A stretch of DNA of 64,000 nt. Origin: Rhizophagus irregularis (lineage: Eukaryota). The notes beneath the pieces were generated by a model, which was given only the letters and a program-made list of their open reading frames with translations, did not search any database and was not told where the DNA came from. Shown here one piece after another: positions 32,587-58,752 of the stretch. The DNA is taken from the NCBI RefSeq assembly GCF_026210795.1, contig NC_089430.1, positions 5,146,001 through 5,210,000 of the forward strand, read 5' to 3'. Every line of letters starts with the position of its first letter. The first letter of the stretch is position 1. The position numbers and the translations under genes are program-made.

Positions 32587-35500
32587 TCAATCATCCGGAA
32601 TAATATTAATTTGTAAGGATTCTATTTAATGGATTAAAATTTTATTAGTATTGTTGTATATAATTTGAATACATTTAATATATTTAATATATTTAGTGAT
32701 AAAATTAATCAATACCTGTGTATTCTGTATGTTCTGGATTTTCTACATTTATTGTATTATCATTAATTTTCAATCGAGAAATATCAATTTGCAAGGAATC
32801 TACTTAAAAATTTTATTAGTAATTTCTTTTCACAACTAATTTGAATAATTTTTCTATAATCAATACCTGAAAATTCCGTGCTTATTATATTATCATTTTG
32901 TTTATAATAATCATCAGAATTTTTTGGTTCAGGAAGATTATTATAACTAAGTAATCTGCTCGAGTAAACAGCTTCTGAATGTGTATTATATGATAATCTT
33001 AAACTTGTTGAAGGTACTATGCTAACTGATAGATTTTTGTTTATTTCATCTGCTTCTTCAACTTGCCTTTGTAATTCTGTATTTTTATCATCTCGCTCAT
33101 CATGCCACTTACGTAATACTTTGTAAATTTCATTTGCTGTCGGTCGATTTAATGGGTTTGCATCTAAGCATCTTTTAATTAAATGCACAATTAATTGAGG
33201 TACTTTCATGTTAAACCTTGGTCTATGTCCATTACAAATTCTTATTGATAAATTTATATCATGACTTATGTCATTATATGGAGGCAATCCAGAAATTACC
33301 TCATACATAATTATACCAAAACTATAAACATCAGCGGCTTTGGTATAATTTTGTCCTCGCAGTATTTCAGGAGCTATATAGGATAAGTTGCCATATATAC
33401 TGTTTATTGCATTTTCCGATGCATTGTAGTTGGCAGGTTTACATAATCCCATATCAGTTATATAAATATGTGCACAGTTCTCATAAAGTATATTACTAAT
33501 ATGTAAATCTCGATGAACCAATTCGTTCCTATGAATAAGATTAAGTCCATATGCAATGATCCATAAGCAATTAAGCTTATCATACCAATTTAATTTGCAA
33601 TAACTTTCATTTAAAAACTTTCGTAAATTTCCATTTTCTACAAAATGCATTACCATTATATAATCTTTCGTTTCTGGATTTTGAGTTATTCCGTAAAATT
33701 TAATAACAGAATTTAGTAGTTCATTTACTTTGTAATGTGATGTAATCTACAATCAAATAAATCAAATAAAATACGTTAGTAAAAAATTCAAATTGTAAAA
33801 ACTTAGAAATAACAAGTTACTACCTCGTTCATGAATTCTAATGTAACATTTTCTGAATTATTTAAACTCTTCAGAGCAACGAATTTATATTGATCTTTTC
33901 TTCTCCAATTTTGTTCTTTAATATCCCAATACCATATATATCCATCAATCCAACTTGCTCTATATATTTTGCCAAACCCGCCTTTTGCAATATATGTAAT
34001 ATCGTTAAATCTATGATAAGGTATCCATTCTATTGCTCTTGATGCTTCATAATCAGAATGTACTGATAGCTGAGCATCTTGAATAAATTTATCAATATCA
34101 TGGTTACCACTGGTCCAATTTTCAAAATTTTTTTGAAAACGTGTTGCAACACATGTATAGTTACATTTTTCACATATATAACACAAAACCATCATATAAT
34201 TTCCAATTTTCGGATCTTGAGTTATTCCGTAGACCTTATGGAGTGCTTTAATCTACAAACGTAAAAACAAATTAAACCATTAGTAAGTGATAAAATTATT
34301 AAAATTTCATTAAATATTATAATTTATTATACCTCATTTATAAATTCTGATGTAATATCTTCTAAATTACTGCTTAAACTTTTCAGAATGACTAACATAT
34401 TATGGCCTTTTCTATTCCAAATTTGATTATAATCATCCCATTTATTTATGTACCCATCAATCCAATTTGCTCTAAACTTGCCTTCTACAATATATTTAAT
34501 CTCAACTAATTTATCATAAGGTATCCATTCTAATGCATTTAAAATTTCACTATTTTTATGAGCCGATAGCTGAGTTTTTTGAATATATTTATCAATATCG
34601 TTATTGCCGCTTGTCCAATTTTCGAAATTTTGTTGAAAATGTATTGTGTTACATGCATAATAACATTTTTTACATCTATCACCCAAAACTACCACATAAT
34701 TTTTTGTTTCCGGATCCTGAGTTATCCCATAAAATCTATGTCCTTTTATAATCTACAAAATGTAATAATATATTAAAAAAAAACAATATATTTAAAATAT
34801 TACTAAATAATCTTATTATACCTTTTGTGTAAATTCTAATGTAAAATTTTTCGGAGTATTCAAACTCTTCAATTTCACAAACATATTGTGACCTTCTCTT
34901 TCCCAATTTTGATTTTTAGAATCCCAATAACTTATAAATCCATCAATCCAATTTGCTCTATATACTTTACCAAACTCATCTTTTGTAATATATTTTATAT
35001 TATACAATCTATCATAAGGTATCCATTCTAATGTATTTTTTACTTCATAGAATGCATGTTCTGATAGCTGAGTATCTTGAATAAAATTATCAATATCATT
35101 ATTACCGCTAGTCCAATTATCAAAATTTTGTTGAAAGTGCATTGCATTACATATAGAATTGCATTTTTTGCATATATCATTCAAAACTATCATATACATT
35201 GTTGTTTCTGGATCCTGAGTTATTCCATATAATTTATGATCCATTTTAATCTACAAATTTAATAATGCGTTAATAAAATTAAAAATCTCAATTTATATTG
35301 AGTAAAAACTTTGTCATACCTTATTCATAAATTCTAACGTAATATCTTTTGAATTATTTAAACTTTTCAAATTCACGAACATATTTTGGCCATATCTTTC
35401 CCAATCTTGATTTTCATTATGCAAAAGATTTTCATATATTCGGTCTATATATCCATCAATCCAATTTGCTCTATACACTTTACCAAACTTATCTTCTGTA

Positions 35501-35712
35501 ATATATTTGATATCATAAAATCTATCGTAAGATATCCATTCTAATGCATTACTTAGATCATATTTACTATGAACTGATAGCTGAGAATCTTGAATAATTT
35601 TATCAATATCATTATTGCCACTAGTCCAATTTTTGAAGTTTTGCTGAAAACGTATTGCGTGACATACTTGATTACATTGGTTACATTTCTTAATTAGCCC
35701 AAAAGAATCCAT
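32587..35712 (-). CDS. TKL-type kinase with 4 tandem Cys-knuckle/N-lobe modules and one C-lobe (gene A, about 889 aa)
   Basis: Exons 35712-35320, 35250-34822, 34752-34333, 34252-33824 (all phase 0), 33746-32867, 32799-32716, 32621-32587. Last module has GGFGKIY and VALK; C-lobe has HRDLHISN, DMG, APE. Confidence 0.85.
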
Positions 35713-56300: not shown

Positions 56301-58752
56301 TGTAGGTTAAAAATAGGCATGAATTTTATGGAATAACTCAAGATCCAGATTCAAAAAAATATATGATGGTTTTGAATAATAAATGTAAAGAATGTAATTA
56401 TATATGTAATGCAATTAATTTTCAACATAAATTCATAGATTGGACTAGTGTTAATAATGATATTGATAAATTTATTCAAGATACTCAGCTATTATTAGCT
56501 CATAATGGTTTAAACGAGGCATTAGAATGGATACCTTATGATAGATTTTATGACATTACAATAGATAAATTTGGCGAAGTGTATAGAGGTAATTGGACTG
56601 ATGGAAAAATTAGTTATTGGGATGATGAAAATCAAAATTGGAAAAGAAACAATCCTAATATGTTTGTGAATTTGAAGAGTTTAATTATTTCAAATAATCT
56701 CATGTTAAAATTTACAGTTATGGTATAATAAATTTATCATTTAACAAATATGTATTTTATTTTTTCTAACATGTTATTTCATTTGTAGATTTATAGAAAC
56801 CATGGATTTTGCGGAATAACTCAGGATCCGGAAACAAAAAATTACATGATTGTTTTGGATGATATATGCGAAAAATGTAATTGTATACTATGTAATTCAA
56901 TATACTTTCGGCAAAATTTCAAAAATTGGACCAGTGGTAATAATAATATCGATAAATTTATTCAAGATACTCAGTTATTAGCAAATAGTGGTTTAGGAGC
57001 ATTAGAATGGATACCTTATGATAGATTATATGATATTACAAAAGATGAATTTGGCAAAGTGTATAGAGCAAATTGGATTGATGGAAACATAAGTTATTGG
57101 GATAAAGAAAGCCAAAACTGGAAAAGAAATGATCAATATATATTTGTGACTCTGAAAAAATTAAATAATTTAAAAAATATTACGTTAGAATTAACAAATG
57201 AGGTATGAATATGCTTATTTTATGATAATATTATTATAAATAATAATTTTACAATTTACTCTATTTGTAGATGTGTAAACCTTATGGAATAACTCAGAAT
57301 TCAGAAACAAATGATTATATAATAGTTCTGTCTGATCAATGCAAATGTGATTATACATGCTATGTAAAGCACTTTCAACAAAATTTTAAAAATTGGACCA
57401 GTGGTAATAGTCATATTGATAAATTTATTCAAAGTTCTCAGTTGTCAGTTCATTATAATCATATAAAACAAGCACTAGTATGGATACCTTATAGTAGATT
57501 TTATGATATTAAATATATTGCAAAAGGTGGATTTAGCAAAGTGTATAAAGCAAATTGGGTTGATGGATATTTAACTGATTGGAATGATGAAAGACAGAAT
57601 TGGAAAAGAGATGGTCAACATATGGTGGTTGTTCTGAAAAGTTTAAATAATTCAAAAGATATCACATCAGAATTTATAAATGAGGTATAATTTATTTATT
57701 TGTTATTTTTAATTAAAAATTTTGAAAATTTAATTTTATTAATATAATAAATATATTCATAGGTTATGTTGCATAATAGAGTAAAAGATAATTATTTTAT
57801 TGTTAGATTTTATGGAATAACTCAGGATCCAGAAACAAAAAATTATATGATGGTCTTAGATTATGCAAAGGAAGGAAGTTTGCGGAGTTATTTAGATGCA
57901 AATTCCAATAATAAGTTAAATTGGAAAGATAAAATCAATTATTTACATAATATTGCATTTGCACTTGAAGGTATTCATAAAAATGAATTAATTCATAGAG
58001 ATTTACATATTGGCAATATATTGAAAAATCATGACATTATTCTTATAACTGATATGGGGTTATGTAAACCTGCAGATTACAGTCTATCAACAAATACAAA
58101 AAATAATGTATATGGTGTTTTGCCATATATTGCACCTGAAATTTTACGAGGACAAAAGTTTACTAAAGCTTCTGATATTTACAGTTTTGGTATAATTATG
58201 TATGAAATAATTTCTGAATTACCACCATATTATAATATAAGTCATGATAACAATTTAGCAATAAGAATACGTCAAGGACTTAGGCCAATGTTTAATATTA
58301 AAGTACCTCAACCAATTGTGAATTTAATTAAAAGATGCTTAGATGCAAATTCATTAAATAGACCAACAGCAAGTGAAATTAAGAATAAATTGTGGAAATT
58401 TAAATTACAAAAAAAAATTAGCGAAGAAATCAATAATAATTTACCAATTATTAACATACCTTTAGCTAGTTCATCATTTATAACACATTCAGAAGCTTTT
58501 TATACAAGTAGACTACTCAATTTTAATAATCTCCCTGAACCAAAAAATTCTGATGATTATTATGAACAAAGTGATAATATAATAAGCAAAGAATTTTCAG
58601 GTATTAATCAATAGTTTATAGTTTAAAATAATTATATTGACTTATATGATACTAATTATTTTTTAATTTATTGAAAAGAATCTCTACAAACTGGTACTTC
58701 CCAACAATCTTGTATTTCTATTTCTCAACAGATTGATATTGATAAATTGTAA
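53384..58752 (+). CDS. TKL-type kinase with 9 tandem Cys-knuckle/N-lobe modules and one C-lobe (gene D, about 1545 aa)
   Basis: Phase-0 exons 53384-53755, 53821-54255, 54325-54747, 54816-55223, 55303-55731, 55808-56221, 56306-56722, 56789-57202, 57271-57684, then 57763-58600 and 58679-58752. No stops seen. Last module has GGFSKVY and VVLK; C-lobe has HRDLHIGN, DMG, APE. Confidence 0.88.

Follow-up and report, generated by a model that had tools for sequence, protein, structure and literature searches.

Four paralogous genes at positions 32705-58752 of a 64,000-nucleotide (nt) stretch of the Rhizophagus irregularis genome (contig NC_089430.1; hereafter the window, 27% GC) encode protein kinases that are preceded by copies of their own N-lobe. 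The genes, A and B on the reverse strand and C and D on the forward strand, carry four, one, seven and nine modules of ~140 amino acids (aa), respectively, before a single exon for the kinase C-lobe. Reading frames are open in A, B and D. The architecture, a non-catalytic kinase N-lobe repeat fused to its parent kinase, is real and expressed. It is probably undescribed so far, and is best read as the mirror image of the KIND domain.

A first-pass annotation of this DNA had proposed a variable number of N-lobe repeats ahead of one complete kinase. A recount gave the same module numbers for the four genes, and the order of the parts recurs in homologues: among the best 120 of 259 matches, a set ranked by score that hence favours long arrays, a C-lobe is present in 85, and it follows the last module in 85/85 (3-11 modules; the C-lobe match is split in two in four proteins). 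The terminal domain is, judged by sequence, a tyrosine-kinase-like (TKL), PF07714 protein kinase. It scores 147-165 bits in P0287, P0281 and P0011, against a curated cut-off of 23.1, and genes A, B and D have the motifs KGGF[GS], V[AV]LK, N-E, HRDLH, DMG and APE; the HRD, DMG and APE motifs annotated for these genes and the HQD annotated for gene C were all found again in the exon translations. Pfam matches on the modules themselves (MHC_I, WKF, MlrA_C, PH_28 and others) were dismissed as short or summed across repeats.

What distinguishes the upstream copies from the terminal one? We compared modules with at least 75% profile coverage from C-lobe-bearing proteins, together with 13 window modules (gene A counted twice), giving 76 terminal and 338 upstream modules. 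The glycine-loop motif GG[FY][GSA] is present in 76/76 terminal modules but in only 3/338 upstream modules, where the loop is acidic or deleted. The alphaC-beta4 loop columns are gapped in 98-99% of upstream modules. Conservation in the terminal class is 100% at each of the glycine-loop positions G, G and F and 98% at both the beta3 Lys and the alphaC Glu; the alphaC Glu falls to 55% upstream, with the beta3 Lys still at 85%. Other parts are conserved alike in both classes, namely three cysteines, the WTSGN helix, QLSxH, LEWIPY, WIDG, the hairpin Trp and beta4-beta5 with YGITQDP. The glycine loop serves ATP binding, and the alphaC-beta4 region anchors the C-lobe. With both absent, upstream copies are non-catalytic derivatives that retain the module apart from its ATP-binding and C-lobe-anchoring parts. 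The earlier view of each module as a whole kinase N-lobe is supported as to predicted fold, as described below, but not as to these two loops.

Structure prediction is consistent with an N-lobe origin. In an AlphaFold2 model of gene A residues 1-675 (45 sequences; pLDDT 77.9, pTM 0.46), each module runs in the order cap helices, beta1, beta2, an inserted hairpin, beta3, a short alphaC, beta4, beta5. P0093, which consists of upstream modules only, was modelled so that the terminal kinase plays no part (pLDDT 72.7). In a Foldseek search with this model all rows listed were kinase chains, mostly over 103-137 columns and five of them at E <=0.001. VIA-align placed P0093 residues 53-153 on RIPK3 15-98 (Z 9.7, root-mean-square deviation 2.5 Å, 76 aligned), with MLKL, PTK7 and RIPK2 tied within 1, and 50/50 rows listed were kinase folds. 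The upstream modules are therefore best described as predicted kinase N-lobe folds, beta1-beta2-beta3-alphaC-beta4-beta5, as had been proposed. The terminal kinase also has RIPK2 among its best matches by sequence, with an alignment that starts at the LEWIPY-equivalent segment; a PDB sequence search with the exon profile gave nothing significant (best E 0.46). The cap (~50 residues) was unmatched in structure searches with the whole P0093 model; no search was made with the cap alone. The image of beads on a string is not established, since adjacent modules are contiguous with zero linker and a pTM of 0.46 does not settle their packing.

The helical cap is predicted to bind zinc. Its cysteines are conserved at 89-94% at three positions. 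The His directly after them, which had been annotated as part of the cysteine motif, is conserved at only 41-43%, whereas the His of QLSxH is conserved at 88-93% and is the likely fourth ligand. In other subfamilies the cap is CxxC-CxxC (Cys4) rather than the Cys3 plus QLxxH of the window family (29/32 versus 1/85), and this exchange between subfamilies supports a metal site. In the P0160 array the cysteine part of the cap is wholly missing from the modules, which suggests that at least one lineage can do without a zinc site.

The array introns are all phase 0, have GT-AG ends, are 60-94 nt long and are located in helix alphaC, where each module exon terminates in the motif E[FL]xN[EK]. Because of this position, an internal exon joins beta4-beta5 from one module to the cap and beta1-alphaC of its successor. 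We infer that duplication copied the structural domain, which runs from the cap through beta5 and encloses the intron. This exon structure, the splicing and the placement of the C-lobe reject both ordinary tandem kinases and several separate genes.

The gene models agree with public proteins. Gene A is open over 850 aa plus the last exon, and every exon agrees with P0287 (881 aa); an additional 3ʹ exon reaching ~32587 is possible. Gene B is 100% identical to P0281 across the 143-aa query, and its single-module layout is likely the ancestral one. In their aligned parts both genes are identical to annotated R. irregularis proteins (P0069, 672/672; P0287; P0281). The annotated 11-exon model of gene D is open throughout. 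Assembly collapse or false duplication can be ruled out for this gene, as its exons are 73-84% identical at the DNA level and thus too diverged. An artefact of assembly, or chance, is also countered by the public-protein matches and by contigs from run X3, which are identical to the window across gene D introns.

For transcript evidence, contigs from 4 of 24 sequencing runs were compared with gene D; the runs carry no RNA label on record, and RNA status was taken from spliced introns. A 1363-nt contig from X16 spans 53302-54866 with 0 differences and lacks introns 1, 2 and 3, removed at the predicted GT-AG sites. Run X19, from a separate study, has the same three splice joints. Contigs from X20 match 57269-57524, 57501-57682 and 57826-58205 with 0 differences; the first two end at the exon 9 splice sites and have 66 and 63 extra letters, consistent with junctions 8 and 9. 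Contigs from X3 cross introns 1, 5, 6, 7 and 8 unspliced with 0 differences; this run behaves as DNA and confirms these five introns. Hence, the part of the 11-exon model that covers introns 1-3 is matched exactly by spliced contigs of two studies, but junctions 4-9, including any joints for the X20 extra letters (junctions 8 and 9), are not among the joints listed.

Gene C is a pseudogene allele in this genome, which the first reading overlooked. Exon 2 (436 nt) is frameshifted and contains a TAA, exon 7 (416 nt) is frameshifted, and there is a second stop, a TAA in the C-lobe at ~48310. The lesions are probably real, since the public model P0310, which comes from another record (a contig of 63,461 bases), shares its final codon with gene C and likewise steers round the frameshifts. 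In two other isolates the orthologue (P0011 and P0311) is open, with 1393 aa and 8 modules. The gene C exons map to pieces 1, 3, 4, 5, 6, 7, 8 and 9 of these proteins, matching at 95-99% where aligned. No window exon corresponds to piece 2, and window exon 1 ends in piece 2 sequence; pieces 2 and 3 diverge far more than the alleles do. Together, the chimeric exon 1 and the divergence of pieces 2 and 3 suggest that the window allele has most likely lost one 147-aa unit by in-register recombination. Repeat number therefore differs between alleles (7 versus 8 modules), at this one locus only; further pairs whose C-lobes are nearly identical but whose module counts differ were set aside, since differences in gene models or assembly could explain them.

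The upstream modules are under purifying selection. In a GY94 codon model (F3x4, fixed tree, 115 codons), omega was 0.25 across 19 window modules and 0.23 across the upstream modules of A and D (11 modules), with omega=1 rejected in both cases (2dL 182 and 115) and about 70-77% of sites at omega near 0.14-0.17. Diversifying selection, which an analogy with NOD-like receptors (NLRs) would predict, was not seen: M2a was no better than M1a (P 0.99-1.0) for 11, 16 or 19 window modules, a test on paralogues with low power. Recombination among paralogues weakens both the codon-model and the site-model tests. For the indel-rich loop after QLSxH, a pooled Nei-Gojobori ratio of 1.75 had hinted at positive selection, but the site models did not bear this out.

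How widespread are the arrays? When 1.84 billion representatives were searched with a profile, 3251 matches reached E <=0.001, and 144 of the best 150, which were those examined, were new. The 20 named among them are all from Glomeromycotina (17 Rhizophagus, 2 Acaulospora morrowiae and 1 Ambispora leptoticha). Arrays also occur in Glomus cerebriforme, in Gigaspora rosea with 2-3 modules and in Acaulospora with as many as 12, and R. irregularis and R. diaphanus orthologues share the architecture (P0288). In the ESM Atlas, the module is found only in clusters named "protein kinase domain-containing", for which the commonest taxon is Mucoromycota. Four subfamily groups contain arrays. A tree was built of 117 modules, taken from three window genes and 20 selected homologues, and in it upstream and terminal modules cluster by subfamily (support 0.96, 1.0 and 0.98); the window, Acaulospora and Ambispora modules form one clade each, and each clade shows upstream loss of the glycine loop. 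Among the distant proteins, all 15 that possess a terminal module have upstream copies nearer to it than to the window upstream modules. The subfamily clades indicate that arrays arose more than once or were homogenised within subfamilies, and from these sequences they were apparently built separately in several of them. A single origin of all upstream modules is unsupported, given these clades and 22 label changes in the window family versus 62-70 with shuffled labels, a pattern that gene conversion could mimic. Catalytic motifs differ as well: the window family is mostly RD (arginine-aspartate), the window's own intact kinases are RD, and 16/16 Acaulospora and Gigaspora array or kinase proteins with a matched motif (P0318-P0344) are non-RD (HCD, HGD, HND, HSD or HDD).

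Expansion of PF07714 kinases in arbuscular mycorrhizal (AM) fungi has been published (available parts of PMC6123716 and PMC8647823), with 2533 members quoted in the accessible text of 10.1101/2022.10.19.511543. The terminal domains described here resemble this TKL family in scoring far above its cut-off. The portions of PMC6123716 and PMC8647823 available to us treat the proteins as plain kinases and do not mention an N-lobe array, and the public database names are "kinase-like domain-containing", "Ypk2p" and "Cdc15p". No Pfam family covers the module or the repeat. Our full-text literature searches returned no description of repeated or isolated kinase N-lobes, in line with the initial impression of novelty; subscription journals, InterPro and supplements lie outside these searches, and AM-fungal genome papers may hold relevant domain tables.

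The closest known counterpart is KIND (Spir, very-KIND, PTPN13), in which half of a kinase fold is likewise used alone. KIND, which stands for kinase non-catalytic C-lobe, is a shown protein-interaction module in Spir (PMC3415841, in the part available), and very-KIND carries two copies. KIND is an isolated C-lobe that is not fused to a parent kinase; in contrast, our module matches an N-lobe in structure prediction, has a cysteine cap, and occurs in 1-11 extra copies fused to its source kinase. Tandem kinase proteins (wheat Sr62TK and WTK; JAK JH2-JH1) also have a non-catalytic, kinase-derived part N-terminal to the kinase that acts as sensor or regulator. They repeat the whole bilobal domain, usually twice, whereas the repeats in our genes comprise the N-lobe alone and vary in number. 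The distinction from ordinary tandem kinases was drawn at the outset and is upheld: P0287, P0011, P0004 and P0150 have one PF07714 stretch each rather than two or more complete kinase domains, the C-lobe is always last, and the upstream modules, lacking a C-lobe, are not the whole bilobal fold of a pseudokinase. Fungal NLRs with WD40, TPR or ankyrin arrays likewise join variable-number repeats to a signalling domain in a large family (PMC4986451, as far as accessible). In our case, the repeats derive from the signalling domain itself, positive selection was undetected, and 14 family proteins scanned had no Pfam match to NACHT or NB-ARC. RIPK2, RIPK3 and MLKL, the TKL-type kinases that match the predicted module best in structure, are single kinase domains without cap, hairpin insertion or repeats.

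To our knowledge, the two lobes of a kinase are usually regarded as inseparable. In these genes the N-lobe appears as a free, tandemly repeated and conserved domain, the missing counterpart of KIND, whatever its function. A subset of kinases carries a variable array that is hidden from Pfam and has an isolate-dependent copy number, which gives a handle on the purpose of the very large AM-fungal kinase expansion. Since copy number differs between isolates, the array is a concrete candidate for isolate-specific perception.

What might a repeated half-kinase do? On balance, we favour a multivalent protein-binding platform, built of non-catalytic N-lobes, that controls the terminal kinase. A TKL kinase would have copied its own N-lobe and predicted zinc-binding cap in tandem, yielding the non-catalytic repeats; the cap-to-beta5 unit would then expand and contract by in-register unequal recombination. 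Partners of the cap, the beta2-beta3 hairpin or the alphaC face of a one-module ancestor may be bound by the array with more avidity or breadth, and such binding would switch the terminal kinase. The KIND precedent for a half-kinase as interaction module counts, by analogy, for a binding array. Several observations weigh against this reading. Direct RNA support covers junctions 1-3 of gene D only, and no single contig joining the array to the C-lobe was seen in the four runs compared. The VIA-align Z scores of 8-10 are moderate by the tool's own note. Annotated homologues lack a C-lobe in 35/120 cases, some of which are probably truncated gene models, and these together with pseudogene C make family members dispensable. 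Nei-Gojobori ratios (0.43-0.51, like those of the C-lobes) indicate weaker constraint than the codon model, and upkeep of folding and frame upstream of an active kinase could also yield omega <1. A bolder reading, which we hold to be less likely than not, is a new class of fungal intracellular receptor, in which a kinase would use copies of its own N-lobe as an expandable bait array, of several origins and reshuffled between isolates, to sense molecules that target kinases and come from parasites, endobacteria, host plants or incompatible strains, and would then fire the terminal kinase.

A related explanation, which we regard as doubtful, is a self-derived decoy sensor: upstream N-lobes would serve as bait for inhibitors or effectors that are aimed at kinase N-lobes and come from mycoparasites, endobacteria or incompatible isolates, and binding would free the terminal kinase, as in wheat tandem kinases. 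[quoted passage not shown] The repeated origin of arrays fits such a sensor, and so do the size and dispensability of the family, its pseudogenes, its allelic differences in copy number and the predicted beta2-beta3 hairpin insertion with its variable positions. Non-RD kinases are associated with pattern recognition, so the Acaulospora and Gigaspora motifs count for a decoy, but the RD motifs of the window's intact kinases count against it, as do the absence of NLR domains by Pfam in the array proteins scanned and the lack of a positively selected site class noted above, with its low power. Autoregulation by homotypic contact is unlikely in our view. Extra N-lobes would bind the protein's own N-lobe or C-lobe, as in RIPK2- or RAF-type N-lobe dimers, and inhibit in cis or nucleate oligomers, with copy number setting the threshold. 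RIPK2 and RIPK3 are among the nearest solved relatives, and the surfaces kept upstream are those kept in the terminal module; however, the alphaC-beta4 loop, which is part of the RAF-type dimer face, is deleted upstream, and up to 12 copies seem too many for one kinase. The array could also be a tolerated by-product, which we consider improbable: a frame-preserving unit with an intron would duplicate easily in a repeat-rich genome, and selection on fold and frame would result solely from its position upstream of a kinase. Phase-0 introns and a self-contained domain would make duplication harmless, a module that has no C-lobe is expected to lose its glycine loop, gene C has become a pseudogene, and kinase families are reported to be enriched in methylated, transposon-rich regions (PMC8647823, available part). 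Against a by-product stand the low omega at most sites, the retention, across genera from several orders, of arrays that reach 11-12 modules, and the architecture shared by the R. irregularis and R. diaphanus orthologues.

Table 1. Positions of the four kinase genes and their parts in the window.
Feature	Position	Strand	Description
Gene A	32705..35712	-	3 upstream modules and 1 terminal module, then C-lobe; Pfam PF07714
Gene A exons	35712-35320, 35250-34822, 34752-34333, 34252-33824, 33746-32867, 32800-32705	-	Last exon per public model P0287
Gene B	40029..41528	-	One module: cysteine/helix cap, N-lobe and C-lobe
Gene B exons	41528-41100, 41005-40135, 40060-40029	-	Public protein P0281
Gene C	44371..48607	+	7 modules and HQD C-lobe, broken
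Gene C exon 1	44371..44784	+	Probable chimera that combines modules 1 and 2 as numbered in the 8-module allele
Gene D	53384..58752	+	9 modules and C-lobe, 11 exons, 1545 aa, zero internal stops
Gene D upstream array, exons 1-8	53384..57202	+	Eight N-lobe modules, non-catalytic; their glycine loop is acidic or missing, and the alphaC-beta4 loop is missing
Gene D exons 1-8	53384-53755, 53821-54255, 54325-54747, 54816-55223, 55303-55731, 55808-56221, 56306-56722, 56789-57202	+	
Gene D terminal module and C-lobe exon	57271..58600	+	Module with IAKGGFSKVY, VVLK and EFINE; C-lobe with HRDLH, DMG and APE; sole complete kinase of gene D

The promoter regions of A (35712-35900), C (44180-44370) and D (53200-53384) have in common CACGT and CGAAACAATATTTTT-CCACTTTTTAAC-like stretches, which were not found upstream of B; the start of the X16 contig at 53302 adjoins the motif of gene D. 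A further PF07714 kinase exon at 93-869 (+) begins at the same alphaC intron position and, from its HKN for HRD and DVE for DFG, is likely a pseudokinase. Adjoining the kinase cluster, 28607-30199 (-) encodes a ~500-aa F-box-like protein, for which the F-box-like match is weak (E 1.5e-4, below the cut-off). A small, secreted-looking, Cys-containing protein (MKPQSFYLL...) at 27163-27597 (+) has zero Pfam matches and is a candidate effector-like protein. The stretch 22384-23214 is a degenerate, purine-rich simple repeat, GKGKRK-like and open in several frames, and 15261-15932 (+) is an exon of Glycosyl hydrolase family 47 (alpha-mannosidase). A basic 385-aa open reading frame at 12483-13640 (+), in a GC-richer stretch and without a Pfam match, is possibly part of a mobile element. 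Finally, a single-exon, 116-aa open reading frame with a signal-peptide-like start at 4475-4825 (-) matches Self-incomp_S1 (PF05938, E 2e-13, above the cut-off), a family whose name derives from plants and which is found here in a mycorrhizal fungus.

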